Below are positions 1,320 to 61,150 of a stretch of DNA of 64,000 nt, in pieces (the stretch's first letter is position 1; each line of letters begins with the position of its first letter). This stretch comes from Amoebophrya sp. A120. Taxonomy: Eukaryota; Protista; Dinoflagellata. The stretch is from the NCBI GenBank assembly GCA_905178155.1, contig CAJINV010000019.1, positions 76,237 through 140,236 on the forward strand, given 5' to 3'. The translations under genes and the position numbers were made by a program. The notes beneath the pieces were generated by a model, which worked only from the letters and a program-made list of their open reading frames with translations, made no database searches and had not been told where the DNA came from.

Positions 1320-2231
1320 GTTTGTCCAGATTTTTAGGAAAGTAAAATTTTCTACAGCATCAACAAGAACTGATCAACAAATTTTACATTAGAAGTTGTG
1401 GACGGAAGTTAGAAGTAAGTACAAAACGTAGGTGTTGTCTGCTTGTTTGGCAAACACACTGCGATTACATCTTCGAGCAGGAGATTTTTTTTTTGGCCAG
1501 ATGGTGCATCATCAATGCAGGAGCAACCCAACTCTCTTCGCCCGGGACCGCCCTCGTCGTGTGGTCACAACATTCTTTATCCGCCTGCACTTGGGCGAGA
1601 TGTGCTCTTATTATTGAAACTACACGACAGTTAAACTTGTTGTAAAAGCACTCTGTTTGTGAGAAATTTCAATTTGCACCGCTCCACATCGTAGTTTGCT
1701 CTCGAAAGTTTTAATGTTTTCGAAGAGGCAGCGCAGCCGCCGGTCTTGTTGCTGCGTGCGGTTAACATACTAAGTTCTATTTCTACGTAGCGTACTGCAC
1801 CTACTCACGAAGAGAGACGACGGAGAGGCTACAGAACAATTGGGTTCATGTTTATACGGTATAGAAAAAAAACACTTAAAGTGTTTTTTATGAGCAGAGG
1901 AGGCGCAGACGAACGAACAGAGACCGTGGCATCTTTGGGAATGACTTGCTCACGTCGGTCAACAACGTCGAACCACGAAAAGCGGAGGCCGAATTTTTTT
2001 CTAGAACCAGCAAACATTTGCATTCTTGGAACGGGAGCCTGGCGGTTATCATACACAATTTTTACAACACATCATCAATTCTTTATCTTTACAAGGATTG
2101 GATACAAGAAGCAGGGGGAGTAAGTACATTGATACGAACAGTGTTGTCACGTCAAAACACAAATAAGAGAGTCATTCTCATATTATTTCATTCCCCTTTT
2201 TTCTTCCGTGTCCCTATCGGGATTCGATCCA

Positions 2232-4822
2232 CTACGAGGAAATCTTCTCCAACTTTCACGTCCCCCCATCTCCCTCGGTCGCTGCCGGTGAAGCCGTATC
2301 AAATGCAAACCTGTCTGGGTTTGTCATGCTAATACATGGATGAACAGCTGCTGAATCCAGTACGCAGCCGAGCATGAGAAATTCCAGGGGTGCTGGAGTG
2401 GGTGTGCAAGCACGATCCGCATAAGAGATCGAGTATTATTTACACGAAAAACTGACAGGAGGGCTCTTCCGTCACATTACATGCATAGAATACATTTTAT
2501 TACAGACTTCTGCAGCTGCTGCATGAGCATGCAAGTGCAGCATTACAAATCCTCACGCAACCTTCCAAATCCAGGCATACTTGCAATGCATAAGCCCCTG
2601 CACCACCAGCCGCGTCTCCCGGATGGTTGCTGGCGCCATCTTCTGAAACCGATGCAGCCTCAGCCATGACTTCGTGGGTAATGTTGCCACCTGGGGTAAG
2701 TAAGTAGTTTGTTGTTCTCTTCTTCTTCATGCATGGCAAAGAAACATAAAATGTGCGATAAACTGGAACTGCATGGGTACTATCAGGGTCATGAAGAACA
2801 AAGGATCATCTCCATTTTTCTGTAATGCTTGCCTGCAAAAGGAAAAGCAAAGAGAAAGAAAAGAATAGCTCAATAATGAATGTAGCTTCAACATCTTTGA
2901 TACTTCCCTTCTTCCCTGCCTCATCCGTTCCGCCGGCCGCTACCGCTGCAGCGAAGTGGTTTTCCACGTTCGCTTCCGTTAGTGCCTGGTGAATTTCCTT
3001 TTCCTCGTCTCGCATGTCTTGTCGCGACCGGCAATACGCATAGACACACAAGTATGCATTGCAAAAGCATCTTCGCGCTTGTAGTAAATTGCACATATGC
3101 TTACAAATAATTTTTCCGAAAACAAATCATGCAGATGATTCAGGTGATACAAGATTGAAATATACTACGAGTTCGATACTCTTGCACAGGATAAGATGCT
3201 GCAGCAGCACGCGATAATTACGCCAAAAATGACCAGGTCGACGACAATAAAACCTGACAAATCATGTGAAGAAGGCGCTTTGTCCAAATTTTTTTCAAAA
3301 ATTCCGCATTTTTAAACGACAACTGCACGACGATTTATTTCACACGCTACTATAACAAAAACTAAAAGAATGAAGAGCCATGCAGGGCTTGTAATACGCT
3401 ACAGAGTCAGATTCGATTTGTGCTGAAAGTAGTAAAACGACGGAGTAATTTGATGTGAAAACAGTTCTGTACCAGCCATTGTGAAGGGGTGCTTTTCTAG
3501 CTCCTCTATGCCCTCCTCCACAGTCTCGTTCACACTTTTGTTCGCGCTCGTGTCGTGGTTCAAAGCCGCCTGTTGTGTCGCGTTATTTTGCGTCACGGTC
3601 ACGTTTTTGCCGTTTTTTGCGATGTCCAGCCGGGAAAAATGCAGCCCGCTTCGTTTTTCTTCCAGCAGAATCTGTCGCTGGTCGTTCTTGCCGCCCTCCT
3701 CGACTTGTTCCTGTTCTTCTCTTCTCACCAGCGATGACGTTAAGCTTCTACCACGTTTCGTCTCTATTTCTCCGGCCGTCGTTGCAGTGCTTGTTGTGCC
3801 GTCCTCGAAATCAACCAGGATTTCTTGTTGTTTTTCTGCAACAGCTTTGGCGGTGGAGAACTTAATATGAGTTCTATCTTTTTCATTTTCATCTTTGCTG
3901 TTCTTGCGGGAAGACGAAGAAGTACTAGAGGAGAAAGGAATACTTGAAGGACCACTGCTTGTTCTTTTACTTTTTTGTGAAAAAAATTCTTCTCTTTGTT
4001 CCTGTAGTTGCTGGTGTTCTCCTGTTGTGGCCGCGTCCCCGGCTACGACGACAGAAGATGTTGAAAGGGGAGAAGATGAAGATGCTCTTGCTTGTTTCTT
4101 GTTTTGAAATATTGACTCGGTGTTTATTGTTCTTGACGGTATTGTTTTTCCTGCTCCGCCGCCAGTGCCGAGAAGACTGTCACGATCATGCTCATCAGGA
4201 TTTATTTGCAGCCGCGGGTAGTTCTGGTGCTTCTGCTTCTCAATCATATGCCTATGCGGTCTTCGTCGCATCTTCACTTGATCTTGTTCCGGTTGCTGCA
4301 TTTTTAAGACTGCGTGCTCCTGTAGAAGTCCGGCCCCCGCGTAGAGATCTGGGTTCTTCTATCCTGAGTAAAAACGTCCCCACACCAGAGCTGTAATGCA
4401 GATTTGCAAAGACAGGAAGACTTGGAATGCGCATCCCCATGCGAGCCATTTCGAGTCGTGTTTTGGAATTTGTGATGCTGTGAACAGGATGAGTAGATGA
4501 ATCTGTGATACGGCTGCACTTGCTAACCTGCACTACACTGCAGAGCGCAACTTGTCATGCGTGACTCACAAAACTCCTAGGCTTGTGTTGCAAAATCCCC
4601 ATCCTGACTCTGGTGTGGGAACGTTTTTACTCAGGATATCTTCACTGGGTCATCTTTGTGCAGCTGCGCGGCCTCGAGAGCTTCTACTACGCAATTATTT
4701 CCGGTGCTGGAAAGAGAGGCTGCGAAATAGATGAAAATCGCAGGGTGGGCGAAGAAGCAAAAGCCACGAGGAGCGCAGGGTCGCCCGATGACCCGGGGGA
4801 CTTTTCGTAAAGTCATTTTCAT
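2232..4822 (-). CDS. Probable type-I membrane protein with S/T/E-rich ectodomain; 3' exon structure below ~2900 uncertain
   Basis: Removing element 4360 joins ORF 4631-4894 to ORF 3399-4301 (DDPVK|NPDLYAGAGLLQEHAVLKMQQPE). GT-AG intron 3254-3472 leads in frame to a TM segment FIVVDLVIFGVIIACCCSI|CVYAYCRSRQ. Confidence 0.65.
2297..2592. mobile_element. Introner family A, diverged
   Basis: tatcaaatgcaaacctgtctgggt...ccaggcatacttgcaatgcata; DR agccg/agccc. Confidence 0.8.
3053..3193. mobile_element. Introner family C, diverged
   Basis: tatgcattgcaaaagcatc...cgatactcttgcacaggata; DR degenerate acaag/agatg; removal of element plus 5 bp keeps frame. Confidence 0.75.
3254..3472 (-). other. Canonical GT-AG spliceosomal intron (predicted)
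   Basis: Minus strand g|gtacag...ttgtcag|gt; joins exons in frame. Confidence 0.6.
4360..4638. mobile_element. Introner family B
   Basis: tatcctgagtaaaaacgtccccacaccagag...ctctggtgtgggaacgtttttactcaggata; DR tcttc/tcttc. Confidence 0.92.
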
Positions 4823-6108
4823 CTTGAGCGGCCTTTCCTTCGTGTGCGGTCCAATCGATTGATAGATTTCTATTTTTCCATTGTTCATCGTCACACTTTC
4901 TTGCGATAATTGATACCGAAATTATACGATGAAATAAAACGATCGAAAAATCAAAATCGCGCAGAGCTCGGAAGACACATGGAGTTGTAGCCTTTTGCCC
5001 CCTCATCTCTCCGATCAATGTCCTTGGCGATGGAGCCACGATGCCAATCCGATTATACGAAGTGCCGAAAAAACATCATTCCACAAAACTATATCACAAG
5101 CACCTCAACGTCAACAAGAACCACATGCTTAACGCCCGTTTTCTAGACGTTGTACTCTCTTTTTTTTTTACATTTACCTGCAATAATCACAAATTTACGC
5201 TCGACTGCTGACCCTCCGACCCTCTCGCTAACGAGTGTTCTTCGATAAATGCGGAAAGCAGAGGACAAGAATTTCTTGGTAGTTTTCAAGGGTTCTTCCG
5301 CATCCTCTTTTACTTCCGACACCGCAATGATAGTTCTTTCTAATCCTCTACAATGACAATCATCGCAGTGGTTAATGTTTGATGTTCACGTCTTCTTTCC
5401 TTTGTAAGAACTACGACCATGTCGATGTCCGTGGCGGGAAAGCTTTTTTACATCATAGATGGGAACGGCAAAAAGGTACTGCTTCATACTCAAGCCGACG
5501 TCAGCTCTGAGGAAAACGAATGTAGCGCAAGCTTCTATAGACAAAAACGAATTGTCAGGCGAGCTTGAAAGCTGCTCTCGTTCTGCCTTTGGATTCCTGA
5601 ACAAGGTTATAAAATCGTCTGTACTGTATTGCATTGAGAGCTGCAAGGCATGATCTGAGGAAAAACAAAATTATGCGTGTTCGCTTCTAGGTGAGCGAGA
5701 TCATGGCATTGTCAGATCATAATTTTTGCCAAGTTTTCTGCGAGTTCGTGTCTACTGCTGAAAATAAATCCATATGAAAGCAAAAGACACAAGCATGGTA
5801 CAACGCACAGATTTCTGTACTGGTCAAAAATGTCGATCCTGATCCAAATCAGAAAACATACACTCCGTTTCGTTCCTTTCATGTGGTATAATCCCGGAAC
5901 CCGAGCGGCCCGTTGGACCGCGCCGCTGGGGCTGGGTATAAAAGCGTACTGGGCCTAGAAAACAACACCGAGGCCCAGCAACTAAAAAGATGATTAAAAG
6001 CCAGTAACACAGAAAAAACATTTTTTCATGTGAAGAAGATGAACAAAAATCTTTCAATTTGCAAGTATATATCAGAGTAGTCTCGGGTCCCACCCACGGA
6101 AGAGGCTC

Positions 6109-7361
6109 TTAGCTGCGAAGAACGACGACGTCGCAGAACCGAAACCTGGTCGCTGTCGTTGGGTCCGGGCGTGGTTCTTCGAAAATTAAAAGGGCTTTTT
6201 GTGCTTGTTTAGTGGATCTGTCTTGACTTGCGACGCCGTGAAGTTTAAGTGTCACGTGCTGGCTGGGCATATCAAATGCAAATATGTCATCTGGTTCTGG
6301 AAGATTGCAGGAGTAGGCTTGGCATGCTCTGCTAGCAGGACTCCAAAGTCTGTCATGGACGTTACCTCCCAAAAGCCTTATTCTGCAGCTGTCATTCAGA
6401 GCCGCGATTTGTTTATGGAGAATACACAACACCTAGCAAGAACTCAGAAACTTGTCATGCTGAGCCGTCACATCTGGTTGTGGCGTCCTCAGGATTCGCC
6501 AATAAGCACACCAGCATCACAAGTTTCCAGACCCAGACATATTTGCAGTGCATAGGGCAACCACGACGTCGAGAAATATGCGCGCAGGAAGTGTTCCAAG
6601 GTATCCTCTGGGCTGCTGGTGACCATACTCTCTCTATCTGAATACACCACCTGCCTCGGGAAATGCCGCGGCACGATTGTGAAGACCTCCGCATGCGAAT
6701 CTGGAAGGTTCGGATCAACCTTTTCGAGGAGGTTCTGAGCAGTCCAATCCTTCCACTCTTTGAAATCGTAATCGAATTCATGCATTAGCTTTCCGCCCCA
6801 GTCAACAAGCCGCAGTGTAGGCTGCTGCTCGGAGCATGCAGTGGGGCTACTTGAGCTGGCGCAAACGGACGACGAGCTTGGGGCGGTTTTTAGCTGCATG
6901 GCTACTGCGGGAGAACGAGGCTGACCTGCTCCTTGGTGTGCAGGAGCAGCAGGGTGAGATGATGCATCAGGCAGCATAGCTCCTGCGGGAGAAGAGCGCA
7001 GATATGGTGGGAGCACCACCTTTCTGAGAGTGTCTCTGTCACGACACCGATTTGAGTTTGGGTGCGCAGGAGCAGGAGGGTGAGACGATGTCTCAGGAGG
7101 AATAGCTCCTGCGGGAGAAGAGGGCAGATATGCTCGGCGCACAATGTTTTTTCCCACCCTGTCTCTGTCACGAAACTGATCTGTTCCTTGGTGCGCAGGA
7201 ACAGGAGAGTGAGACGATGTCTCAGGAACCGGATCTTCTCCTCCGCGCGCAGAAGACGCAGCCTGAGCCCTGCTACCTCCAGAACCGGAGGCGGCCGCGG
7301 CGTCGCAGACATGATGAACCACATACAATGTGAGGAACGACACGGCACCGGCACGCAGCAT
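6109..7361 (-). CDS. Secreted hypothetical protein (~320 aa) with internal ~42-aa repeats; one introner
   Basis: Signal-like N-terminus MLRAGAVSFLTLYVVHHVCDA; removing 6270 element plus 5 bp joins STSWLP|SQHVTLKLHG in frame. Confidence 0.75.
6270..6554. mobile_element. Introner family A
   Basis: A-type TIRs; DR gggca/gggca. Confidence 0.9.
6930..7230 (-). repeat. Coding tandem repeat, ~126-129 bp unit, ~2.5 copies
   Basis: gtgaga(t/c)gatg recurs near 6954, 7080 and 7209; peptide P(E/D)(T/A)SSHxxxPAH occurs three times. Confidence 0.75.
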
Positions 7362-8309
7362 GGTCGTTGATTGTGCGTCGACCTAATGGACAATTGGTAG
7401 ATTAAATTTATAAAGGACGAGCTCCTCCTCGTGCTTGTAGTTAGTTTAGTGGATTGGATATGTGTACGTAGTGAACTTTCGACGTTCGTTAAGTACTAGC
7501 AAAATACATAGTATTACTTAAATCGGTGACAGAGAAGATGAAATTCTTGCAAACAACTGCAAGAGTTGGTCCTAAAAGAGATCGGAGCTGCTTCCTGCGA
7601 GTTCTAATGAAAGGCACTATGATACCTAAAAATTGATGTCCTCGTCTGGGCAATGACGTTGCCATGCAAATGCCTCGCTAAAACGAGAAATAGAATTGAA
7701 AGGGATCACAACAAATTTGAGCACACACGATGGTGATTTGATGAAAATCACGTAGATCAACAATAATGTATTTTTTTGTTGTCACCGATAATTCTAATAA
7801 ATTGTGCGATCGAATGGCCTTGCTGTAAGTATGTGTTGAACTGGATCCGACGCTGGGGATGCAAGGAGATCAGGAAACTTTGATGCTGGACCGAGTTTTT
7901 TCCTTGCATTTTTTTTGATCATCGACTCCAGGGCCGAGGGGGCCGAAAGCTGCAGTTTCATTTTTGATCCGCGACACACGATGCGTGTGATCTTTATCAA
8001 GACTCATAACCTCAACAGTTGGTAAAGAAGAGCCGAAGCCTGACCTTGCGGCGCCTCTCCAGAGAATTATCAACACGTGTGCTGCCTTTCTTAATCTTCA
8101 ATGCACTGCATCGTCTCGTCAGAAGCTAGAAGAACTGACGCTTCGAGGCGTCGCAGTTATTTGATGTTCCTGTTCTCGGAACTGTAGCAGCTATAAAAAG
8201 GTCATTTCAACATCAACACTCAGGATCAACAGCAGGAGCACCGCAAGAGGGGCACGTAACCGTAAGTTCTATGTGATCATGTGAACTACGACTTCTCGTG
8301 TCCTCTACT

Positions 8310-11300
8310 TCACGGCTTCACCCCCATCCAAAAGTTCGCGCCCAGAATGTTCGAGACGTAGTCTGTATGCATTGCAAATATGTACTGCGCGTCTGAAAAT
8401 TTTTTGCAAGATTTGTAATGCGAAAGTGCGAGCACTGCTCGTTCTCACACAGAATACGCAACACAGGGAATGGAAAAAACTTGTCATGCCTACCTGCTAA
8501 TGTTGCAGTCTGTTCATCATTTGCAGTAGCATCACAAGTTCTTCAAATTCCAGACCCACGCATATTCGCAATGGATAGTCCGTGGTGGGTTGGGTGGTTT
8601 GCCCCACCGCCGCGAGGACGATGTTCTTGGATTCCATCATTTGCACAAAGTTCCGCTTCTCAAAGTTCAGTTTCCTCAGTTCTCATCCTGAGTAAAAACG
8701 TCCCTACCGCAGAGTTGTCATGCAAATCCAAATGCGCAATAACAGGAACATTTGTAATGCGCAGCTCCATGAAAGGTATTTCCAGTCGTGTTTTGGAATT
8801 TGTAATGCTGTCAACCGGATGAGAAAATGGCTGTCTCGTGCGGCTTCCGTTGCCAACCAGCACTACACTGCAGAGGGAGACTTGTCATGCACAGCTCGCA
8901 AAGCTTGGAGATTTGTGTTGCTAGATTCCCAACTTGACTATGAGGTGGGGACGTTTTTACACGGGATAGCTCTGACTCTTTCATCATCCAAAATTTGAAC
9001 AGCTTCTCTCGCTCCTTGTTCAAGTCGATCTGCAGGGTTATGCACCGCAAATATTTCTGGGTCTGGAAGAATGCAAGTTTGTCTTGCTCGGCTAGCATGA
9101 CTGCCAAGTCTGTCACTCACGTTACCCAAAAGCACCAATTTTCTGTCATGCAAAACAAAAGTTTGTCATGCTCAATAGACAGTGCCTAGCTCTACTCAGA
9201 CACTTGTCATGCTGAGCCGTCATTTGTGGCGTCCTCGTGATTCCTCGCCAGTCAGTATCACAAGTTTCCAGACCCAGATGACGTGTTTGCATGTGATAAG
9301 TGTCCTCAAGTTCTGCAGCCGCTCCTGTCTCAGATGCCGTTGGTGCATGCTGAAGCCCAGCGTCTCGTCATCTTCCAGCAGCTTCAGGACCTGCTGCTCC
9401 GGTTCCGACCGGTCTTCCGCTCCGCCGCGCTCCAGTCTGACAACTTCCTCGTCTATCAGGTCGAGCTTCAAAATCAACCGTGAGTATAGGCTATGCATTG
9501 CAAAAGTATAATCGCACTAGTAGTAACTCTAACTCCTGCACATACAAATTCGTCTGCATGAGAAATCGAATTTGGTGCAATACGGATTTACCTTAAGAAA
9601 AGAAAATGCAAAAGATTTGCAAAAATGCATGTACTGCAATTTTTACCACGAGTACGATACTTTTGCACTTTTGCATACAGGCCCTCGAGCTCCGTCAGGT
9701 CCGAGAGTAGCGCCGACTATGAAATGCAGAAGTGTCTGGGTCTGGAAACTTGTGATGCTAAAATGTGCATGATGAAAACCCTTCCGAATGCAGTCCGGCA
9801 TGACAACTTCCCAAAACGCTTTCGCATAGGCAATCCGCATGAGAAACTGCGTTTTTGCATGACAAAAGAGCCTGCTGCTTTTGTTGGTTATGCAATACAG
9901 AGTATCTAGGAATGGAATGCTAGCATTACAAGTTCCAACCTTCGTCCAGACCCAGACATTTTTACAATCCATACCGACTGGTGCTCCTCGATATCGGACA
10001 GCAGCCCGGTTCGCTTCCTGTCTCTGATTCTCAACTTGTAAAATCTGTCCAGCAGCTCATCTGTCTCCGCTTTTCTGTATCCTATGGAAAAACGCCCCCA
10101 CCCCATAGTTGTCATGCAAATTTGCATGCGGAAAATGTTTCTCATGCGGAGACACATGGGAAGCATTTCCTAATCGCGTTTTGGAATTTGAAATGCTCCA
10201 AGTCCAATCAGCGTCATAGGCTAGATTTGTGATGCTGCTGGACGACGTAAAGAGCATTACATTACAAGCCCAAATTTGTCATGCGCAACAGCCCAAGCTC
10301 GTTGATTTGTCTAGCAGATTCCGCATCTTGACTATGGGGTGGGGATGTTTTTACTCAGGATATCCTCCGAATGGAATTCACGGTGTTCAGCGCCCGCATC
10401 ATGTCAATGCCTTGTCTTCTCCCCGCCATTATCAAATGCAAATATGTCTGGGTCTGGAAAGATGCAACTTGTCATGCGCATTTTAGATCATGAAAAAATC
10501 TGTCATGCACTGGGAGCAAAAGCAGCCCTTTTTCTGGTCTCCGAAAGAAGGGATTTCTCATGCGGATTAGGCATTGAGAAACCTCCTGCTCAAAACCTGT
10601 GTTGCTGGGGCTTGCATGCCAGACCTTCTGTGTGACGCAGACTCTGCATCACAATCTTCCAGACCCAGACATTTTTGCATTTGATAGCCATCTCGAGCCT
10701 TTCCTCCTCGGTGCGCACCTGGCCCCAGCAGACGTCCGGCGACGGGGCGTTCTGCTTCGTTTTCCCGAACTTCTTTTCGTACCGGTGGTCGGGCTGGTAG
10801 AACCCGCCCCGCGCTAGGGACGCGGCGGAAAAGTCCATGTCGTCCTCTCTCGGGTCTTGGAACTGCGCATATCCTCATCAAGAACGTCCCCACACCAGAG
10901 TTAAGATGGGAAATCTGCTAGACAAATCGACTAGCTTTGGTTGTTTGGCATGACAAGTTTTTGTCCGCGGAGTGTAAAAATCCTGTTTCGCTAGTTCAGA
11001 AGCATCGCAGATCTAGCTTAGCATGCTGATTCTAGCATTGCAAATTCCAAAACACGAGTAGAAAATGCTTCTCATTGAGCTCCGCATGAGAAACTTTTTT
11101 GGCATGCAGAATTGCATGACAACTATGGGGTGGGGACGTTTTTGCATATGATAGCGCAATCGAGGGGTTTATCCCCGCCGAGGCCTGCATCACCCCGCCC
11201 AACAGCTGCATATCCTGAGTAAAAACGTCCCCACCCCAGAGTTGTCATGCAGATTTGCAAAGACAGGAAGACTTGTAATGCGCATCCCCATGAAAGCCAT

Positions 11301-14300
11301 TTCCCATCGTGTTTTGGAATTTGTGACTCTGCAAAGAGGATGAGGAGATGGCTTTGTGATGCGGCTGTCCTTGCGAAACTGGACTACAATATAGAGGGGA
11401 ACTTGTCATGCCTGACTCCCAAAACTTCCGGATTTGTGTTGCAGATTTCCCATCTTGACTATGGGGTGGGGACATTTTTCCTCACAATACTGCACCCCCT
11501 GGACCTTGTCTTGGTCCACGTTTTTCAAAAGTGTCCGGCTGTAAATCCCACCTCCCTCCACGAAGCGGGCCTCTCGCTGGATCATGACCCGTTCGTTCAG
11601 CGTTTTCTGCGATTGCACCACGGCGGCCAAGGGGGTGGTCGACTCCGTCCGCATCGCGTTTTGCAGGTCCAAAATCCGGCTCAACACCTCCGCCTTTCGC
11701 CGCAAGAGCCGGAGCTCGCCCGCGGCCCGGGCGCGCTGCTCCTCGGTCACGTATGGAGCCGTCAGGTTTGAAATCGACAAAGTTGAAATGATTTGCCATG
11801 CATAAAATGGATGCCAGTTGTAACCCAGTTTCCAACTGGCGCATGACAAATTGGGGTAGAGCCGAGATGCAGTTTGTCATGCTGTTTCGGCAAAGAAGAC
11901 TGCTCTTGTCATGCTATTTCAGCAGCTCAGTTGCTACCCCTCAACAGGCTTACAATCTGCCTCACTTGCCTACTCTGCAAGGCAGGCACTTTGTGGGCTG
12001 TATTTTTTGCATAACAAACTATTTCAACTCTGACTATTTCAATCCTGACACATCCATATCACGTAGCGTTCCAGAATGAACTCCTGGTCTGAGGTGAAGT
12101 CGAAAGGTTTGTACAGGACTGACGGCTCCACCACGGTGTTGTGCAGCGCGATATCAACTGCAAATATGTCTGGGTCTGGAAACTTGTAATGTTGCGCTGG
12201 GAATAGTGAATCAATGCTCTGTAATGCACAGCCAAGCATGAGAAATGTCTGCGCTTCTTTATTGTGTTGCGTGTTTCGCATCACAGACTGCGTTTTTGCA
12301 TGACAGGCAAAAGGGAAAAGGGTCTCTTCTTTGACACGCATCACAAACTTTTTGGTCATGCCAGACAAGCATGACAAATCTCGCAATCTTCCAGACCCAG
12401 ACATTTTTGCATTTGATATGCGACGTACCGGAGCAACTCGCTGAGGTCACTGGACCCCCGCTCGAGCAGGTGCACCTTCCGTATGGCGTTCTCAAACGTT
12501 ACATTCTCAACTGTTACATGAATTTGTGATGCAAGAGCCGCAACAGTCAAAGGTGAAAGCTTGCTGCTTTCGCATCACAGATTTGGCACGGATTTAGATG
12601 CTGTTTAGCCCTTCGGAAATGTGTCATGCCAAACAGCTTGATCATCTACCGGCTCAAGGTAGTTTTGCATGACAAATTCATGTAACAGTCGAGAATGTAA
12701 GTAACGTTTGAGAACGCCATATTCCGCTGGCACCGCTGTCGCGCTTCCGACGCGTTCAAAAATTGGTGTCTGCGGAAGGACAAGTTCGCATTCGGCGGGT
12801 TGGCCCGGGTCGTCAGCATCTCCTCGTACGAAATTTCCGCCGGCGTGAACTTGCCGCCGTGCTCCTCCTTGTGCGCCTTCGGAGGAAAATTGTGCGGATC
12901 GATGTACGTCGACGCCGGGTAGGAATGGAGTTCTTCGGAGTGGAGCAGGATCTGCAAATCCGACTCCTGCACGGTTGCGGCGGCCAGTTCCATCTCCGTC
13001 TCGACCAGGTTGTCACTGACCATCACCTGCAGGGTCAAGACCCGGCAGCGCTCCTGCACCGAGCGCCAGTAGTCGTGCACGCCGCGGGCAAACTTGAGGA
13101 CCGCGAGCCTCTCCGTCTCCGTCAAGTCCATCACGTCCTCCTTTTCCCCCGAGAACAAAATCTGGTGGAGGAAGATATCCAAGAAAAAAACTGTGTAAGT
13201 GTAAGTCTGTGATGCAGGAAGCGCTAAACTGCATACACTTGTCATGCTAGAGGTGCGTCATAGGCCACTTTCATAGGTGTTTCCACGTACTAGCTGCGCA
13301 TGACAGGTTTTCCCTGTAATGCAAAGCGAATTTGTGATGATGATCTTCCTACAAATTCACACTTACACAGTTTTTTTCCTGGATAGAAGAGCCCAACGGA
13401 CGACTCTTCTTGAATGATGCCCTCCCGCTTCAGCCCGAACGTTTTTTGCACGCTGGTCGCGAGGTAGGGGTCGAGTTTTTCGTCCACCCGCCGCAGCTCA
13501 TCCCGGAGGACCAGACGCTCGTGGTTGAAGCTTCCAAACTTCTGCTTGGCGTCCCGCAGCAATTTGTCGAGGTCTTCCCGGACCAAATCGAGGGTAAAAG
13601 CCGGCCGCTCCAGTGGCCAGTCGGGGTGGTCCCGCAAGTCTCGCAGATTGAACACCGGGGTGTAACTGGTCGACACCATCTGCATCTTCCCGGACTTCTG
13701 CCGTCCTCTGGGGAGAAAGGCAGAGGGAATGCGTGTCATCACGGAGTTGCCCGGACCCATGTCGAATGCGGCACCGGGTGATGCATCCGGTGCAAAAAGG
13801 AAACTCTGCGCTCCGCTATTTCTTGCAGATCCCGATGTGGAGGAAGAGGATTTGTTTCTACTGCCACCGTCTGCCGCCATAATTCCTCCGGACTTCACCT
13901 GCCCCCGGGAGGAGGAGGAGGAGGCGGGCATATTCATTCTCGTGCTGCTACTCTTGTTCCTGATGTTGGTAAGTGGTATATCCAGTGCGGGTTGCAGTGA
14001 CAACTCCAATTCCGCGATGGTCTTTTTCCTTCCATTCCTATCTCCCTGTCGTGGTCCCGGCACAGCACCACCTTTATTTTTCACGCTCCTACTCAAGGAC
14101 GTCGGAGCGGCAGAAGGTACAATTTCCGCTGTGAAAGGCGGGTTCTTCAAATCGTGCCATAGCTGCGTTGCCACTTCCGCGGCCGACTCTGTTTTTCGCA
14201 GTGGCGGAGAAGATGCAACTAGAGGTTCTGACGCCGGACTTGCTCCTGATGTTGCGGTAACTTCTCCGGTTGAAAATGCCGTTGACGGCCGTCCGGGGCG

Positions 14301-14477
14301 GTAAAAATTCTTACTGTTATCTTCTTGCCGGAGGTCATCGTCCTCGTCCTCGTTTTCTTCACTTTGCTGCAAGTCGATGTACCTGTCTACGACATTCGAA
14401 ATGCGGTTCGAGAGATCCTCTTTCTGCGGAAGGACTGGCACAGGGGCGGTCTCGGTCTCGCCGAAACGGAAAGCCAT
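8310..14477 (-). CDS. Hypothetical protein (924 aa; disordered N-terminus, helical C-terminal part), 14 exons separated by 13 introners
   Basis: ATG 14477 to TGA 8310-8312. Hand removal of 13 elements, each plus 5 bp, leaves 2775 nt (925 codons) with no internal stop. Confidence 0.88.
8366..8577. mobile_element. Introner family A, diverged
   Basis: tatgcattgcaaatatg...catattcgcaatggata; DR gtctg/gtccg (synonymous Thr). Confidence 0.85.
8684..8968. mobile_element. Introner family B (left end CATC)
   Basis: B-type TIRs; DR gttct/gctct (synonymous Glu). Confidence 0.88.
9039..9298. mobile_element. Introner family A
   Basis: A-type TIRs; DR agggt/agtgt (synonymous Thr). Confidence 0.88.
9492..9677. 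mobile_element. Introner family C
   Basis: tatgcattgcaaaagtat...gatacttttgcacttttgcata; DR taggc/caggc (synonymous Leu). Confidence 0.85.
9718..9973. mobile_element. Introner family A
   Basis: A-type TIRs; DR ccgac/ccgac. Confidence 0.9.
10078..10362. mobile_element. Introner family B
   Basis: B-type TIRs; DR ttctg/tcctc (two mismatches, both synonymous Arg). Confidence 0.88.
10430..10686. mobile_element. Introner family A
   Basis: A-type TIRs; DR gccat/gccat. Confidence 0.9.
10870..11153. mobile_element. Introner family B
   Basis: B-type TIRs; DR gcgca/gcgca. Confidence 0.9.
11211..11489. mobile_element. Introner family B
   Basis: B-type TIRs; DR ctgca/ctgca. Confidence 0.9.
11752..12058. 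mobile_element. Introner family F (single copy in window)
   Basis: tatggagccgtcaggtttgaaat...atttcaatcctgacacatccata; DR tcacg/tcacg; removal restores frame. Confidence 0.88.
12152..12418. mobile_element. Introner family A
   Basis: A-type TIRs; DR cgcga/tgcga (synonymous Ala). Confidence 0.9.
12482..12721. mobile_element. Introner family D
   Basis: tatggcgttctcaaacgttacattctc...gagaatgtaagtaacgtttgagaacgccata; DR ttccg/ttccg. Confidence 0.9.
13176..13385. mobile_element. Introner family E
   Basis: tatccaagaaaaaaactgtgtaagtg...cacttacacagttttttttcctggata; DR gaaga/gaaga. Confidence 0.9.
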
Positions 14478-15365
14478 TCTTTCTCCCCCCTGAGCCTACC
14501 GGGAAGATAACTGCTGTGTCACTCTGTACTTGTTCTTAAAATGGAACCCGAAACTACTGCACTGGGCAGTAACAGCATCAAGAACAGTCACAGTGTGCAG
14601 AAAGAGTGAGAGCAGCATGATAATTTTTTTGCTTTAGGAGATTTGTTGTGTTGGTATTCCTGTATCTTGCGACCATAGCAAGCTAGTACAAGAAGCTGTA
14701 ATGCGACGAGCGAACTCGAACTACCTTTCTTGCGCCTTCAGATGGGCAAGTACCAGGGTGGAAATTTGAGATTTAACCTGCTCGTCAAACTTCTTCTCAA
14801 CGCTCAAGTTTTGTCATTCTCAGCGCTCGTAAAAGCAGAGCGATCGACGACATTACCGCACTCCAAGCCAATAGTCACTCAACACCGAATGTCTCAAGTT
14901 TCGCTGCCTGAATTGATGCCTCCCCTGGTCGTGTAGAATTCGCTGCAAGTAAGCGAATGTTGAAGAGGACTTTTCACAGCCACAAGGGCGGGACTCGTCT
15001 GAGTCGACCAGACGGTGCGCTCATTGCGCTCATCGAAACGAGCCAAGGAGGCAGGACAGATTTTGGAGCTTTCTTTGTGCGTCGACCTTTCGAACAACAG
15101 CGCTACTTTTCGATAAAAGGAGCAGGCGTAAAGAATACGCAAATGTGGGGCCTTGTTGGCCTTCATTTGAAGCAACAGGTGCAGGAAGATACATAGGTTT
15201 CCGTTTGTGCTACTTGGTCCTTTTTGTTTGTCCAAAGAACTGAAATAAAATATTGATGAAGCGCAACCGAAAGTGTTTTGTAGTCAACGAACATGGTGAC
15301 GTTCGGGCCGATGGGTTGTTCGAAGAGCAAGAGATCAAAAACGCGTGGTCGTTATTTCCAATCAC

Positions 15366-20435: not shown

Positions 20436-22295
20436 TTATGACAACGCGTCTAGATCTTCAACAGCTGCAGGTTTTACGCTTGCACTTTCAACATCATTAT
20501 TTTGGGCTTCTTGTTCACCAGCAAGCGGACCTCCACCTTCGGTTTTCTGCAAAATCTCCCCCCACACCGGATCTCCATTTTCGTCCAGCTCGCCCGCCTC
20601 CTTTTTCTTTTCGTATTCCTCGAACGCTTTTTGGAACCATTCTGGGGGCCCCTTCTCCTGGATCTCGTCCCAGTATTTGTCTGTGGGCGCGCCCATCTCG
20701 GCCTGCATCTTCTCCGCGTCGAGACCTGGGGTAGTGTTGTGCTATGCTGTTTATGCATCGGAAAGTATCGTGATCGTCCGTTCGTAGTATAAATCTCATG
20801 ACAAGAAATTTTCTCAAGAACAAGAAAAGTACAGGTTGTCATGCAGATTCAGGTAAGAAACACAACAAGCTATATAGAAGATCATTTCAGAAAAAAAGAA
20901 CTGTAGCACTCGTAAGAAGAAAGCTGCAGTAAAGAGTACCTCCTTGCTCAATGTACTCCAGTGCTTCTTTCCTGGACTTCTTCAGCCTCTTCATGATATC
21001 AACAATGACTTTCTCTTTTTCCTCCCGCCGACGCCGCTTTTGCTCCTTCGTCAGTTCGTGTTTGTCCAGCAACAGCTCGTCCTCAAATTGCTGTATCAAA
21101 TGCAAACATGTCATCTCGATCTGAATTCTGAAAACAGAAACCTGTGACGCTGGTTTGAGAAAAATACGAGGACACCGCAATTGACTGCCAAGAATGACAA
21201 GTTGTGGAGATGCTGGGCACAGGCGTTCCGTTGTCTATGGTGCATAGCATGACAAACTGGGCTTCTGCTTGACAGTGCCTTTGGCTCATGCGCATGACAG
21301 ACTTGTTGAGAGTTATGGTAGCCGAGCATAACAAACCTTGCATCTTTTTGAATTTGAACTCATCGATCCGACATATTCACATTTCATATGTTGTCTCGCT
21401 TTACTATTTCCAGTGGACGAGGAGGATGCTGAGTTCTTTGCAATTCCACTATCCCCGGCACTATCGGTACTGGGCAGTTCGGCTGCAACCTGGTCGCTGG
21501 TCGCCACCTGCAGCTTCTCCAGATCCTCCACTGTGTAGTACTTCTTTTCCTTGATGGAGTTCGTCTTCTCATCGAGCCCATGCATTGCAAAAGAATATGA
21601 TCCGCACCAATGCATCACGACCCGCATGAAGACCGTCGCACCAGATCATTTTGGTACGACAGAAAATACAACTGCGACTTCAACTCGTCATACTAGGTGA
21701 AGATAAACAAGAAGACAGGACGAAAATAACGATACTAGCAGTGCTAGTGCTGCAATTTGTAAGAATCTAATCAAGTGGTAGCGGAAGCGAATAAGCTTTT
21801 TGCACTGCATAAAGCCAGACGGTGTTCCCCTTCGCCCAGGCGGAGACGATTTGTCGCTGGTGCGCCGGGGTCAGGGATTTCTCTTTGACCAATTTTTTGA
21901 TCGCTGCCGAGGCATCCTTCAGATTCTCCTTGTCGAGCGCCAGGACGGTGGCTTCGTGCAGTTCCGCGTTGGTTGCTCCCACCACGGTATCAAATGTAAA
22001 AGTGTCTGGGTCTGGAAGATTCTGAGACTTGTCATGCATGTTTTGCATTGGCCATGATGCATGTCTGTGATGCATGCCCTAGCATCACAGATTTTTTGAG
22101 GGCTTCGTGATGCCTATTCCGCATGACAAATGCCCTCTCCGCGTAGCAAAAATTGCATTCCCTTTGCTGCTCATGCAATACAGATTTTTCTGGAATCCAA
22201 ATTCAGCATCGCCAGTTGCATTCTTCCAGACCCAGACACTTTTACACTTGATACACGGCGGAGGTAGAAGGGGACGCCGTGGTGGTCATCGCCAT
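20436..22295 (-). CDS. Hypothetical protein (278 aa, charged/helical); 3 introners and 1 GT-AG intron
   Basis: MAMTTTASPSTSAV|VGATNAEL...TVWL|DEKTN...ARQ|QFEDELL...EQG|GLDAEKMQAEMGAP; 837 nt after removal. Confidence 0.8.
20726..20939 (-). other. Canonical GT-AG intron containing a decayed family C introner relic
   Basis: g|gtactc...ccccag|gt in frame; internal tatgcatcggaaagtatcgtgatcg, catgacaag and ttgtcatgc. Confidence 0.65.
21094..21388. mobile_element. Introner family A, diverged
   Basis: tatcaaatgcaaacatgtc...gacatattcacatttcata; DR tgctg/tgttg (synonymous Gln). Confidence 0.82.
21579..21811. mobile_element. Introner family C, decayed (left end CATG)
   Basis: catgcattgcaaaag...ctttttgcactgcata; DR gagcc/aagcc (synonymous Leu). 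Confidence 0.78.
21988..22253. mobile_element. Introner family A
   Basis: A-type TIRs; DR cacgg/cacgg. Confidence 0.9.
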
Positions 22296-22959
22296 GGCTT
22301 GGACTGATGTAGTTCCGGCGCTCAAGTTGTACCAGTCCCGTTGCTGATACTTTTTGAAGATGCGCTTCACGACACAAGTGAACAAGGTGTTCAAAATGCG
22401 TGCGGTAGAAGCATGTAGTTCTTCTCTCTTAGTCTAGCGTCTACCACGTCACGGACAGCGGTATAGACCTCGATAAAGATTTTGCACAAGAAAAATACTA
22501 ACCCGCTATCTACATCCGCTTGCTGACTTCTTTTAATTTTACAGGAAAACAACCAAATCCCTCTTTGTCTTGGTTCTCCTTGTTCTCTCGGGGAGCTAGT
22601 AGCCCACGTAGTTGTAGTTCGTGAACTAATCCCCTAAACCCTAAGCCTGTCTCTCGTTCACGTTCACTCGTTGGTTTGGCTCCGCTTTCACTCCTGACGC
22701 CCTCCGTGAATATTCCGCTTGTGACGCCACACGTCTGCCGAATGAAAAAGATGCTTTTCCTTGGCCACTGCGGCATCGATCTGGGAAAATCAGGCGGAAG
22801 CCTACTGGCAAGCACAAAATGCGCAAAGGCCAGGGAAGAGAATGACCGTGGAGGTCGTTCTCAGTGCGCTGCTGGGTTTTTTCGGAGATGGCTGGCACCT
22901 CGCAGACCATTCAGGAATGCACCTTACAGGCCATTCAGGAATAAACATAGCACCACAGA

Positions 22960-24600
22960 ATGAGAGGTAGGCGCGCCGCTGCAATCATCGGACCTATCGA
23001 CACGTCGTTCGCCCGGCACACTTAGCAACACGACCCCAGCTTGCTCAGAGAGGAGCGAGGCGAGGGGGGCGGGGCAGCTACCCGGCGGCCAAGGGAAGAC
23101 ACCTCCTCCACGAGCCAGCATTCAGCAAGCTGCGGTGAGCGGGCCGCGTAAATAGCGGCGCAGGACCGACGGACTGCGCGCCCACCCCGGCTGTCAGTTC
23201 TCAACGGGGCGTAGATCCTCTCCCATGCCTAGCTGGGCGCGCCATACATTACAACAACCGGGGCCGCCCAACCAGCACGCAAACATGCAAAGTTGTCGGC
23301 TCGGCGCAAATGAAACGCGGGGCCCAGGCCCATGAATGGAAACCACCGGGCCGGGCCATGTCTTTGGTGGCGTGGGCGGGCCCCTGCGGTGTCGGGGTTG
23401 CGGGCTCGCCTCCGCGCCGGGGGGGGCGGGGCGCCGCCCGCCCGGCCTGCCAACAAAGGCGGGCCCATTGCCGCGCGCGGACACACGGACGCCATTCGCC
23501 ACCGGCTCGCACTTTCCCAGCTTGCAGAAGTAGCACACCGATCGGGCCCGCGGCGGGGGAAGGGCCCAACGTGGACGCGCCCGGCCCCTTGGCTTTTCTT
23601 TGCCCTACGTAGTCTACACCCACGCCGGCCATGTAGCGGGTTTTTTTGCAGAGAGAGGGAGCCCCCCCGGGCCGGCCGGGCTGTGTCGTTCGCAATTTTC
23701 TTCACGACTCAAACGCGGGGGCAAGCCCGCCGCGCGCGGGCGCCGGGCGACCGCCCGACGGCAAACCGGCAAGCCGCCCGCACGGCCGGCCGGGCAACTG
23801 CCCGACGGGCGCCTTTTTGCGAGCGGCCGGCGGCCGCTTGCAAAATAAAAGGCGCGCGGGCAGCCATCGCCGGAAGCAGGGCCCGGCTGATTGTACTCCC
23901 CCAACAAGGTACGAACACGACTAGCCGGCATTCCACAATCAACCCAAAGCATTGGGGCGGGCCGCCTTGGGCGCGCTGAGCAGGTTCTTGAAGACGCGGG
24001 CGCGAATTGGCCGGCGGGCGCGCATGCCCTTCGGCCAGGCCGACGCCTCGCACCCACCCGCCCGGGCGCGTGGCGTTTTCATGCCTGCGCGGCATTTACG
24101 CGCCGGCCACTTCACACGCCACCCGCCGCCCCAGCTTTTTGACATGCATCGCCGGGCGATCTGGCCAAGCCCTGACGCCAATCGAGGAAGCCACCGACGC
24201 GGACAAGATTCGCAATCTCGGAAAAATTGTTGCGCTTAGGTAGTTCGCACAGCCCTCGCCCTGCTCCCCGCCACCAGCCCACAGAACTCTGAGAGAGAAT
24301 GCGCCGCCCTCTTCTTCTCGTCGCGAAGAAACACGGGCCACACGAGTGGGCCCGCTTTCTCCTTCTCGCCCTGCTGCGGCCGCGGCAGCGGTTTCGCCCA
24401 GCGGCTTCGCCTTGGGCAACGTGATAGCCCGGAGACCCTTCGGGATGTCGTCAGTGGAGGCACGGCAGACCTTGTAGGCCAGCTTCCCCATCTCCAAATC
24501 ATCTCCACCGCCGGCGGTAGTCATCCAGACCAGCCGCGAACGAATTGGCGCGGGGGGCAAAGAACGGAGGAAGTGACAACACTCCTACGGCAGCGCCAAT
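22960..24600. other. Very GC-rich non-coding island, unexplained
   Basis: Dense ggcc/gcgc tracts broken by short A/T runs; only R/A/P/G-rich spurious ORFs; no introners. Confidence 0.5.
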
Positions 24601-25211
24601 CAGTTACCGCAAAGCAGACCTGTAGAAAGCAGAACAAGAAAGCCACAGAGGGGCGCTCGCTTTAAAGGAACATATCACAAGGAAGACGGAACGAGCGCCG
24701 CCACCGCGCTGCTGCGTATCGAAAGGTAGGCTGACTTTCAGTTCGGGCGTAAGTACCCGGCCTTGTTCCCTTCTTCGGAAAGCGAAGTGATGAAAGCATT
24801 AACACTACTTGCCGCCCTGATCTCGACGGTAATTCTAGTTGCTCATCCACCTTGTCTTGCGTCTATCTTGAAGCAACTTTGGTGCTCTTTATTGTGACAA
24901 GTCATCTTTTTGGCACTACGGATTCAATAGCTTTTGCAGCTAAAATCATTCTCATTTCTTCACTTTAAGTATTTGATTTGAACAAAAACCTACGAAAGAG
25001 AAAGCTTTGATTTTTGTCTGTCTACGTAGATCTTCCATGAAATTGCGAAACGATGTGCTTTGAAAAACTTGTGACTTTTTTCTGTGGTACACTTATATCA
25101 CTGAAACTTATTTGAGATTCTGATTCTGTACAGCCTGTTCATACTTGATGTCGATCCCGTTTTACCTGACTTACCATCCTCTGGTCCTGTTCTCCACCAC
25201 ATTTCTATACT

Positions 25212-28200
25212 TTACTTGTATGCCCTAGAAGAGGTACTCTCCCGCGACCCGCCAAAGAATCCGGTCACTGCTCCAACCGTGCTACCCATCGACGCCGCCC
25301 GCTTTCGCAAAAACCGAGCTTTCCCGTTACTCTGCAGGCGCCAATCGGCAAACGCAGTCGTTTTGTTTGCGCCAAAATCGTCCAAATCCGGATTTTTCCG
25401 ACTGGAGTCTCGAGTGCCTGGAGCGGCACTGTTGCTCTTCCGCGCAAAATACCCGGACCCCCCGACCACAGCCGTAGAACTCTCGTCATTCAGCAATAAT
25501 CCGGGTTTCTTCGTCGGATTCAGTAAGATTTCCGCGTTGCTCACCCCGCGATTACTGAACGCCGCGGTTTTCGTTCTATCCGCCTCGCGCCCAGCGTGGA
25601 AGGTTATCCACTGCAAAAGTATCGCACTCGTACTAATCGCAATCACGCATGTCAAGTCTGATGTTTCACCTGGATCTGCATGACAGATTTCAACTTTCTT
25701 CTAATTGAGAAAATTTGTCATGCGACTGATGCTAGTAGGTGTACGATATTACTTTTGCAATGCATAAAGGTGACCGCGTCCCGATTTTCGAGCAAAAGCT
25801 TTCCGCCGTACCTCTCCGCAACTCTCGAGTGGATCTGGTCCATCAGTTATTCCATGCAAATATGTCTGCTGGGTCTGGAAGGATGCAACTTGTCATGCTG
25901 CATCTGAATCATGTGAAAATCTGTGTTGCATGATTGCCAAAAGCTGTCCATTTTTGACCTAGTCGAGAGGTAGTTTCCAATGCAGAATAGGCATGATAGA
26001 ACTCTCACAGAGTCTGTCATGCTATGTCCTACACGCCAGACCTCATGGGTCATGGAAAACCTGCATGACAAACCTGGCATTCTTCCAGACCAAGGAATAT
26101 TTGCATTTGATATCAGCTCGCGCGCTGGGATTTGGCTTGCCAAGTCCTGGGAGGGAATCATCGGCGGGTGATTGTCGGTGTTCATAGAAGAAAAAATTTT
26201 CTGCGTCGCTGGCAAAGTAGTGCTATTCTTTCCACCCAGATTGCCAGCATTGCTGGTCGTTCTCCGCGTCGCTCGCCGGTTGGGGGAGAGAGAATTCTGC
26301 AACTGCAGATCCATCTTTGTGTACTGGAACTGAAAATCGGGATTCGCAGCAAACGCGCGCTCCTGCGCCGCGAGCGTCTTCTCCACGCTCTTCTGGATCA
26401 GTTGCGAAGAAGATGAAGTGTTGTGCTTGCTCGCTGCAACGTAGTTCTTTTTTGGCGTAGATAAAGTTTTTTTCACCGAAGTCGGGGAGAAGATTGAGGA
26501 CCGATTTCCACCAGCATCATACCCGGAGGGTCTACTTTTCCTCCCGTTATCAATTTCATTCTGGTCCTTCGCGCTCGGCCGACTTCTTGGCCTTGGGAGC
26601 TGGTTTGAGCTTGAAGATGTCAGCAAGGTTGGATTAGCTCCTGCACGGCTCTGACGCTGGTTCAGGTGCGACGTCGGTGAGGTACCAGTCGTGTTATTTG
26701 GGGACATATCGTAAAGAAAAATCCCCCCTCCCCATATTGAAAACGCATCCGTCTGAAAATTTGTGATGCACATTTGTGACCTCAAATCTTGTCTGTAAGT
26801 CCAGAGAGCCTCCTGCATTTTGCAGGCGGTTTGTGATGCTGTTGGGCTTAGAGAATACACGTTTATTGCCATGCTAGGCGCCTACGTCAAAACCCCTCGA
26901 CTGAGGCTTGCCACATTCCTGCAGTCCTCTACTGCAAAACAAATTTGATTTGTGTACGGAAATCCAGCATCAGAGACTTCGTTTCGATATCTATGGGGAG
27001 GGGAGATATTTCCTTTTGATAGGACAGTGTGAAAGTTCCATTGATGCTTGGACTCGATCGCGAAGTGGGTGACACTGTGGCCCTCCGCTGAGCGGACGGG
27101 CGGGCGCCGTCTTCTTCTTCTTCCTCGTCCGGTCCTCCTGCCGTCCCATCTTCCACAGAGATGATCGACCTGATCCGAGCGAGCTTTGGCTTTTTCGGCG
27201 AGGACATCTTCGTGGCAGATGAGTCCTCGTTGTTGCTTTTGTTGAACAAACCTGCTCCCTGCGATCGATCGTTTTGCAGTAGTCCACCAGCCCCTGCTCC
27301 TCCTACACTACTAGATGAAGCTGCTCCACCGCTAGTCCCCGCCGAGCGATCCGTGGTGCCACTAACATTCCGCACCAACAAAGCTCGTCCGGACTTTCTA
27401 CTTCCACTTCCACTGGTTCTTTGTTTCGGCGTACCAGATGATGCACCCGGAAAATAACCCGCAGAAGAAGACCCCCCACGGTCTGAACCTCCGGAAGAGC
27501 TGGGGGACGGCGAGCTGAGGAGAAGCGGGCTGTCGCTGTTTCCAGGAAAATTGTCCATTTCATCTTGTTCCTCTTCCAATGCCTCTTCTAGAGCGGATTT
27601 CGGTGCGGTGGATTTGTCTCTTGCGGAGGTAGACAAGATTTCCATCTCTGCGTTCCGAATGAACAAATGGTCCCGCGCAGACTGACGCGTGAAGCCTTTC
27701 TCTGTAGATTTTTGTGTTTTTGCCTTTTATTCGTTCGAAAATTGATGTACCCCATGCCCATGCCCATCAAGTCAGCGGAGGCCATTTTGATTCGGAGTTG
27801 CGAAATCTTCGAGAAAACAGTTCAACTTTCAAACTGCTTATTGAGCTTGCGTATGCAAGAAAGATCAAGCCTAGGTTTTCGAACAGAAAGCCTCGACGCA
27901 TCATGAAGTCGTTTGCTAAAAATTATGAGTACGCTTCTTCGTTTTTTCCCCGCTTTTCACGTTGGCGCTAGCCGGCCCGTACCGAAACGCGTTTTTCTTC
28001 AGTTGCGACACCGCCTGTCGTGTGTTATGAATTGCAAAAGCATTGCATCGTACTAGTATAAATTGCATTACAAATTAGCCCAGCATTACAAATTAAATTT
28101 GTAATGCTGATTTGCCTTGAGAAAAGAAATTTGTAATGCATAAATGCAATTACTACGAGTGCGATACTTTTGCAGTGGATACGTGTTCTTCTTTCGCAAT

Positions 28201-42970: not shown

Positions 42971-43156
42971 CCTGTTCCGATGGTATGCACAAAGGACAAC
43001 AAAAATCGCCATCAAGACGCCTTTCAGCTGCATGCGACCTCACTGTCGTCGTTATCTTAGGTGAGAAGCCTTTCGCCTCCAAGTTTAAGAACACAAGTGC
43101 ATGATCACACACACGCCATGGGACATCATCTACTTCGTCGTCCCACAACATAACAA

Positions 43157-60330: not shown

Positions 60331-60819
60331 AGGTAGAGGCAGATTGATATTAGAATACAAGGTAAGCTACAACAGCTTCTTTTTACGTAGAAAACGACTC
60401 GAACTCAAAGCGCAAGTTGTTGAGGCTCAGACATACCACATCCGGCTGAGAACAAGAAGCTATACAAGAAGCAGCTACCGAAGTAGAATCGAAGGACTTT
60501 TACGTGTCGATGCTTTTACATGTCCTAACAATTGCGGAGAGGAACAAGAATTAAAACAGGAAAGCTCGTGCATACGAAAGAAAAAATACAACTGCAACTG
60601 CAATTGGTTTTGACAAGTAGTACATGGCACTGATTCAAATCCACCGACAACATCAACTTCTTCCTGCAGAGCTTCACCTGACATCCTGCAAGCCTCTCAC
60701 AAAGACAAATCAAAATTATAAACATGTCATTCATTACTATTTATTACATCTTGACGTGTTAATCCTATTCCTTGTCCCTGGCAACGTGCAGTGTGCCAGG
60801 CGTAGGCGGTGTGTTGGGT

Positions 60820-61150
60820 CGATCAACTGCAAATATCTCTGGGTCGGTGGTGCTGAATTGTGGATGAGACGCATTTAAGTATAGAAGATAGCGTCAAAGT
60901 GTATATGCATGTAGAAGCGAGCATGACAAGATGTTCTATTTTCTCATGCGTGGGACTGTACAAACACAAACAAACTGCTCTTCAGACGAGGAAAGGGTCA
61001 TGCAAGGAGATGAAAGATTCTACACTGGAATCTCTTTTTCATACATCTGATTTCCAGTGCCAGTCCAGGAACGAAAGCAAGACACGCAACACAAGTCCAC
61101 CTCAGCCCGACCCAGGATGGGAATGTTTTCACGAAGTAGATCTTCCAGAC
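60820..61150. mobile_element. Relic family A sequence, ends unresolved
   Basis: gatcaactgcaaatatctctgggtc, gcatgacaag and tcttccagac; no clean DR. Confidence 0.4.

Follow-up and report, generated by a model that had tools for sequence, protein, structure and literature searches.

A fixed cut register for thirteen introner elements in one Amoebophrya sp. A120 gene and a lariat-like loop that suggests a branch adenosine in the terminal repeat

In the genome of the dinoflagellate Amoebophrya sp. A120, Farhat et al. 2021 (PMC7789003; articles are cited here from their accessible parts) described repeats of about 240 nt that carry TAT, seven variable bases and then AAA, are flanked by direct repeats of 3–5 nt, and are removed with RNA-seq support. 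More than 60% of Amoebophrya introns lack GT-AG ends, and single A120 genes contain tens of introners (PMC12130899). The means of removal is left open in PMC7789003, as a preliminary description of the DNA analyzed here had also held; A120 is credited with most spliceosomal proteins and with U2, U4, U5 and U6, and U1 was not detected. We analyzed a stretch of 64,000 nucleotides of A120 DNA (contig CAJINV010000019.1, positions 76,237 to 140,236; hereafter the window), in which a protein-coding gene of unknown function on the minus strand (8310..14477; 14 exons, 924 aa) is interrupted by 13 elements with terminal inverted repeats (TIRs). They correspond to the introner elements that Farhat et al. 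2021 described in A120, sharing the inverted repeat, a direct repeat (here 5 nt), occurrence in families and removal without GT-AG ends; the earlier assignment of organism and class is upheld by the source name of the matching protein and by the terminal pattern. Neither the elements nor their crowding within one gene is new; what is new here is the fixed cut register and a proposed branch nucleotide.

The 13 elements span 8366-13385, measure 186-307 bp and occupy 3,328 bp of the gene's 6,168 bp, with arms matching at 11-24 of 25 positions. TAT stands at both ends in 12 of them, element 8684 ending in ATG, and the terminal pattern of TAT, seven variable bases and an A-run recurs throughout, the A-run being weak in elements 11752 and 12482. 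The arbitrary direct repeat first described is present as 5 nt at every site, but it is perfect in only 7/13, with one mismatch in 5/13 and two in 1/13. Similarly, the six families proposed at first are recovered only if element 8366 is joined to the largest family through a shared end motif, since BLAST clustering gives seven groups; relatives within the window were found at 69-84% identity for 10 of the 13. A scan of the window for TAT...ATA with matching arms and flanking repeats returned 34 elements with perfect 5-bp repeats, whereas 19 of 20 shuffled controls gave no such call and the remaining one gave a single call. Under relaxed criteria the number rose to 59, and three degenerate elements were recovered by mapping an annotated protein, for a total of 62. 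These elements measure 128-376 bp and fall into several unrelated families, their ends being the sole common feature, and one family was found in both orientations within minus-strand genes.

Excising each element plus 5 nt at all 13 sites yields 924 aa and a stop (925 codons), read on the minus strand from 14477 to 8310, and when any element is retained singly the frame closes inside or near it (395-934 aa), both as the preliminary description had claimed. However, the open reading frame (ORF) alone tests length modulo 3: excision of the element plus 2 nt (937 aa) or plus 8 nt (911 aa) leaves it open too, other lengths closing it. Therefore, the value of exactly 5 bp, first read from the ORF, is fixed by RNA contigs. 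The RNA evidence consists of assembled contigs from four runs (X3-X6; two samples of one study), compared over window part 2150-10429 for all four. In every run, the six target elements of this part show skips of 217, 290, 265, 191, 261 and 290 nt, and element plus 5 nt is skipped at three neighboring elements; a fourth neighbor is skipped in X6 only. For the whole gene, over which RNA contigs span approximately 8066-14506, the X5 joint table was swamped by repeats of other loci, and only piece coordinates were used. A 2,014-nt X5 contig places window positions 9299, 10687, 11490, 12722 and 13386 at its positions 378, 762, 992, 1395 and 1844, equal to the element-plus-5 prediction at all 13 sites. 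The single removal rule is thus borne out at eight junctions individually and at the other five as two sums. At 35 nt, 9679-9713 is the shortest exon; the earlier figure of 40 bp counts both repeats. Two GT-AG introns (2691-2903 and 3254-3472) are skipped by the same four runs and most intergenic bins are empty; X3-X6 are taken as processed RNA because the GT-AG introns are also skipped.

Canonical ends do not account for these skips. GT-AG is available in none of the 13 elements in any of the six registers tried, a stronger result than the "many" junctions originally claimed; a GT donor alone occurs in three, and a U2-type GT or GC donor combined with an AG acceptor was found in none. Frame-keeping GT..AG pairs lie near all 13 elements, but they do not produce the skips that the contigs show across 8310-14477; transcripts using such pairs had been named as one outcome that would refute the removal rule. 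It is scarcely credible that the elements are instead lost by programmed DNA elimination. The short repeats at the borders of these precisely removed inserts are reminiscent of the pointers of ciliate internal eliminated sequences. Nevertheless, the DNA-like run X1, the one examined of four such runs, has pieces unbroken over element ends at depth 23-43, approximately that of unique DNA, which makes elimination from DNA unlikely, and GT-AG introns are likewise missing from the skipping contigs, which terminate close to the ends of genes. A ciliate-type internal eliminated sequence was accordingly rejected as a class for elements retained in X1. Bins holding elements attract very many contigs in that run.

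At the protein level, a query with exon 2 against 558 candidate proteins gave two matches, P0002 (Amoebophrya sp. A120, 100%) and P0003 (A25, 49%). The predicted spliced protein equals P0002 up to about residue 909, after which P0002 reads into the last element; retaining only that element (8366-8577) gives exactly 934 aa, the length of this public model. The search for element-retaining products thus has a divided outcome, the last element being spliced in RNA contigs and retained in the public model. Intron 13 possibly marks an alternative C-terminus or an annotation error, and it may be retained in some transcripts, since the public model reads into it. The A25 ortholog P0003 aligns over the first 10 junctions and stops before the last three. 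A Pfam search of P0002 and P0003 found no families, and the best match in an Atlas search, a Cfap43 coiled-coil cluster at 0.78, lies below the bar and is a lead only. In run X9, 84 raw RNA reads with the same species label match only the element end at 12385-12419 and then pass into other sequence; they would come from an unspliced or free element of this family at another locus or in another strain. The raw-read runs X9 (96 reads) and X10 (5 reads) match element ends only and are uninformative on this gene.

Positions at which the two direct-repeat copies differ reveal which copy a contig keeps, and hence where the cut falls. In gene sense, repeat positions 1-4 derive from the upstream copy (element 2297, position 1; 3053, positions 2 and 4; 8366, position 2; 8684, position 4; 9039, position 3; 10078, positions 1 and 4), and position 5 derives from the downstream copy at element 9492. 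One register fits 9/9 informative RNA positions in seven elements and all four runs. With the repeat written D1-D5, the intron is D5 + TAT...ATA + D1-D4: it begins with the nucleotide preceding TAT (N-T-A-T) and extends 4 nt beyond ATA, and its removal in the contigs restores the original coding sequence exactly. Protein sequence cannot set the register in this gene because all its mismatches are synonymous. In P0004, the annotated protein of another gene, 7/7 non-synonymous positions in four elements fit the same cut, three of them concerning position 5, where the introns open with C, C or A; the peptide at element 59257, whose flank runs into the next element, was read by eye. Among 52 elements in ORFs of at least 240 aa, the +1 base is C in 19, A in 13, G in 13 and T in 7, and the last two intron bases comprise 15 of the 16 possible dinucleotides. 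The in-frame GT..AG options at 9492 and 9718, whose AG falls 3 nt short, are bypassed in RNA. Additionally, the nine top A120 non-canonical ends listed in Table S4 of PMC7789003 all have T at the second base.

To distinguish lariats from linear or circular products had been proposed as a check, and one lariat-like contig emerged, from intron 13. This 212-nt X5 contig (depth 3.1) covers 8457-8578, continues through a single letter A and returns to 8369. Read in gene sense, it links the 3' arm to the C at 8578, which is the predicted +1, and shows T at 8368, so that a cDNA A lies opposite the genomic A at 8368. The chance of the loop starting at the predicted +1 is 1 in 217. Exon sequence, the 6-nt tail and a complete direct repeat are all absent from the contig, which therefore does not fit unspliced RNA, repeat slippage or a full-length circle. 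Branch points have been pinpointed through such a misincorporated A in cDNA (PMC2367711), and a loop joined at +1 and -7 with a misread A suggests the signature of a lariat. The loop was seen in one of four runs and one of ten elements examined. It comes from the last intron, the one retained in the annotation, as might be expected of an intermediate that is slow or stable.

The proposed branch nucleotide, the A that opens the terminal ATA (-7), is present in 52/52 elements in long ORFs. Departures from TAT/ATA across the 62 elements number eight, after one element end was shifted 2 nt by intron length: four at -5, two at +4, one at +3, one at -6 and none at +2 or -7 (p approximately 0.04 if uniform). 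The +2 T and -7 A are also kept in degenerate element-derived introns with eroded direct repeats (61737-61927, 62323-62703 and 62728-62995); one degenerate intron is readable as CT..AG, a possible drift toward canonical ends. In the canonical introns 2691-2903, 3254-3472 and 61194-61718, which end CTTACCCCAG, CTTACTCACAG and TGATTTGTCAG, a candidate branch A lies at -7, -8 and -9; therefore, a short branch-to-acceptor distance seems workable. The donor of one canonical intron reads GTATCA, resembling element ends. These observations bear on a cut-and-ligate pathway that would release full-length circles, with the loop contig as an artefact. Euglenid nonconventional introns, which have TIRs, repeats like target-site duplications (TSDs), non-canonical ends and circles without lariats (PMC11282704), give a precedent, and the loop was seen just once. 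Nonetheless, we regard this pathway as quite improbable: the loop, which is the one circle-like contig seen, lacks the last 6 intron nucleotides and has a mismatch at the invariant A, all of which a full-length circle would retain, and +2 T and -7 A are never altered, whereas the partner -5 A is.

The mismatches between repeat copies show a further pattern. All seven in gene 8310..14477 are synonymous third positions, and in four genes (8310-14477, 20890-22433, 25215-27726 and 27919-40479), a post hoc grouping, mismatches fall at 16/72 third positions versus 0/133 others, 16/16 being synonymous. Over all 52 elements, the counts are 17/93 third versus 9/167 other positions, which is not significant (p 0.14 under a null model of neutrality for the intron-side copy). 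Non-synonymous exceptions are concentrated in a low-complexity gene, another long ORF and the neighboring gene at 2297/3053 (three, one read by hand); the synonymous-only pattern is not seen in the low-complexity gene 56643-63385. A cut that slides at a low level, or recombination with alleles lacking the element, could lie behind the excess, and the added proposal that occasional sliding places both copies under coding constraint is doubtful. Reading of either copy would also fit a polymerase or reverse transcriptase that jumps between direct repeats over the hairpin, by transcriptional skipping or as a template-switch artefact, and a stable hairpin flanked by direct repeats is indeed present. 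However, such jumping is very improbable, given that a single register is seen in all runs, that the annotation removes even degenerate introns in which little of the repeats is left, that an excised intron-only loop exists, and that conservation of the protein with A25 extends over the junctions covered, so that removal must be real.

We consider it probable that the elements are removed by lariat splicing through a relaxed U2-type spliceosome, in which the inverted repeat provides both the donor and the branch point, and distance from the branch sets the 3' cut. The element, likely a non-autonomous DNA transposon, would insert with a 5-bp target duplication, D1-D5. Its 5' arm would then give donor positions +2 to +4 (T, A, T; compare the GTATC donor of a neighboring canonical intron) with any base at +1, and its 3' arm would give the branch A, for which one type of molecule was seen. 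The second cut would follow by distance, 6 nt past the branch, without AG. A hairpin of the arms may bring the donor close to the branch, perhaps replacing U1; the predicted fold of intron 13 is a long hairpin (z = -4.2) with terminal UAU paired with AUA. Since both arms read TAT, an insertion into any sequence, in either orientation, would create a ready-made intron. The evidence inclines modestly toward a general statement: the A120 spliceosome has dropped the donor G and the acceptor AG and needs only N-T-A-T at the 5' end plus a branch A placed 7 nt before the 3' end, each supplied by the symmetric terminal repeat, so that any insertion with a 5-bp duplication, whatever its orientation or target sequence, at once becomes a perfect intron.

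The same cut and lariat chemistry might alternatively be performed by a separate machine that reads the hairpin, either a second divergent spliceosome or a protein-assisted structure. A branch at -7 recalls group II introns, and the hairpin of intron 13 is strong. Moreover, U1 was not detected, and Farhat et al. expect a distinct mechanism (PMC7789003). We nevertheless judge this unlikely: the window contains no Rfam family at gathering score, elements of such varied length and unrelated family share only their ends, the canonical introns have similar donor and branch spacing, and no minor spliceosome is reported for A120 in the accessible text of PMC7789003.

Several points weigh against removal by a relaxed spliceosome at a fixed cut. 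The usual step-2 contacts are lost to a spliceosome without G+1 and AG, and the branch A is paired, not bulged, in the predicted hairpin, so the stem end would have to open. The lariat is one assembled contig missing in X6 of the same sample; a library chimera is possible, and a lariat would show the chemistry, not the machine. The RNA label of X3-X6 is a guess, and contigs drop minority forms, so rare forms and minor registers could escape. On the RNA side, a single site (9492, itself GT) and the loop set the upper bound of the cut, and the other three upper-bound positions derive from annotation that may rest on the same RNA. The synonymous mismatches in the four genes are left unexplained by a strictly fixed cut. 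Finally, the Fig. 3 legend of Farhat et al. describes splice sites as variable relative to the hairpin (PMC7789003).

Table 1. Introns of gene 8310..14477, the lariat-like loop and the inferred branch adenosine, in window coordinates (p1-p5, repeat positions in gene sense)
Feature	Position (strand)	Description	Evidence
Intron 1	13172..13386 (-)	element 13176-13385; CT..TT; 215 nt	215-nt skip, X5 record 9; ends by fixed register
Intron 2	12478..12722 (-)	element 12482-12721; AT..GA; 245 nt	RNA sum with introns 3-4; P0002 identical across
Intron 3	12148..12419 (-)	element 12152-12418; AT..GC; 272 nt	RNA sum; P0002; repeat mismatch not read out
Intron 4	11748..12059 (-)	element 11752-12058; AT..TG; 312 nt	RNA sum with introns 2-3; P0002
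Intron 5	11207..11490 (-)	element 11211-11489; GT..CA; 284 nt	RNA sum with intron 6; P0002
Intron 6	10866..11154 (-)	element 10870-11153; CT..CG; 289 nt	RNA sum with intron 5; P0002
Intron 7	10426..10687 (-)	element 10430-10686; CT..GG; 262 nt	subtraction of record coordinates
Intron 8	10074..10363 (-)	element 10078-10362; AT..GA; 290 nt; p1, p4 from upstream copy	joint 10072-10363, 4/4 runs
Intron 9	9714..9974 (-)	element 9718-9973; GT..CG; 261 nt; in-frame AG 3 nt earlier unused	joint 9712-9974
Intron 10	9488..9678 (-)	element 9492-9677; GT..CT; 191 nt; p5 from downstream copy; in-frame AG 3 nt earlier unused	joint 9487-9679
Intron 11	9035..9299 (-)	element 9039-9298; TT..CC; 265 nt; p3 from upstream copy	joint 9033-9299
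Intron 12	8680..8969 (-)	element 8684-8968, ends ATG; CT..AA; 290 nt; p4 from upstream copy	joint 8677-8968
Intron 13	8362..8578 (-)	element 8366-8577; CT..GA; 217 nt; p2 from upstream copy; retained in 934-aa model	joint 8358-8576
Lariat-like loop	8369..8578 (-)	212-nt contig round intron 13, +1 (8578, C) to 8369, closed via one non-genomic letter	X5 record 7, depth 3.1, joint "goes back 210"
Inferred branch adenosine	8368 (-)	first A of terminal ATA, -7 from 3' splice site	replaced by extra letter in loop contig

Elements make up approximately 23% of the whole window, and with few exceptions its long ORFs are on the minus strand. At 27919-40479 (-), excising 22 elements opens a single 2,645-codon frame, which exceeds gene 8310..14477, and at 2150-4889 (-) one transcript in all four runs contains three element introns and two canonical introns. 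The regions 23001-25000, 41800-43100 and 51259-56543 are GC-rich (up to 74%) and contain long ORFs and no detected elements.

If correct, the relaxed code would explain tens of thousands of introners and amount to a general splicing code for the genome, with an exact rule for re-annotating Amoebophrya genomes. It would also illustrate how far terminal-nucleotide rules can relax and how a transposon can be rendered harmless wherever it enters coding sequence. With a fixed register and a named branch nucleotide, intron removal in A120 becomes directly testable. In the literature searched, which excluded the figures of Farhat et al. and subscription papers such as Roy 2023, no report was found of a fixed register, a branch assignment or a lariat for Amoebophrya, and the phrase "branch point" has no use in PMC7789003.

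Among mobile elements, IS3EU/GingerRoot, IS481EU and Ginger2, which belong to integrase-like superfamilies, resemble the present elements in their TA..TA or TNT..AYA termini and duplications of 4-6 bp (PMC10045372). IS3EU duplications are, however, usually 6 bp rather than the 5 bp seen here, and the elements do not qualify as IS3EU/GingerRoot even though their termini fit. No transposase was seen in the window; no genome-wide transposase search was made. A six-domain group II ribozyme with domain V was likewise not found, the window giving no Rfam match at gathering score and the elements being too short. Compared with Farhat et al. (PMC7789003), in whose accessible text the border is "unknown" or "variable", the cut here is fixed at -1/+4 around the element and is accompanied by a lariat-like loop. 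The TIR/TSD introners of algae and dinoflagellates (PMC9860276) are likewise non-autonomous DNA transposons that leave the mRNA restored, with boundaries inside the target duplication; the described cases carry or co-opt GY/AG sites, whereas the A120 elements accept any +1 base and nearly every terminal dinucleotide. Euglenid nonconventional introns (PMC11282704) resemble those of A120 in a TIR hairpin at fixed offsets to the splice sites and in TSD-like repeats; they are reported to yield full-length circles without lariats, in contrast to the A120 loop, which has no 3' tail and a branch-type mismatch. Fritillaria borealis (PMC11282704, PMC13326754) also combines MITE-derived non-GT-AG introns with a conserved U2 spliceosome. 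However, Fritillaria keeps the preferred ends AG-AC and AG-AT and U1, whereas A120 keeps only a +2 T and a proposed branch A at a fixed distance.

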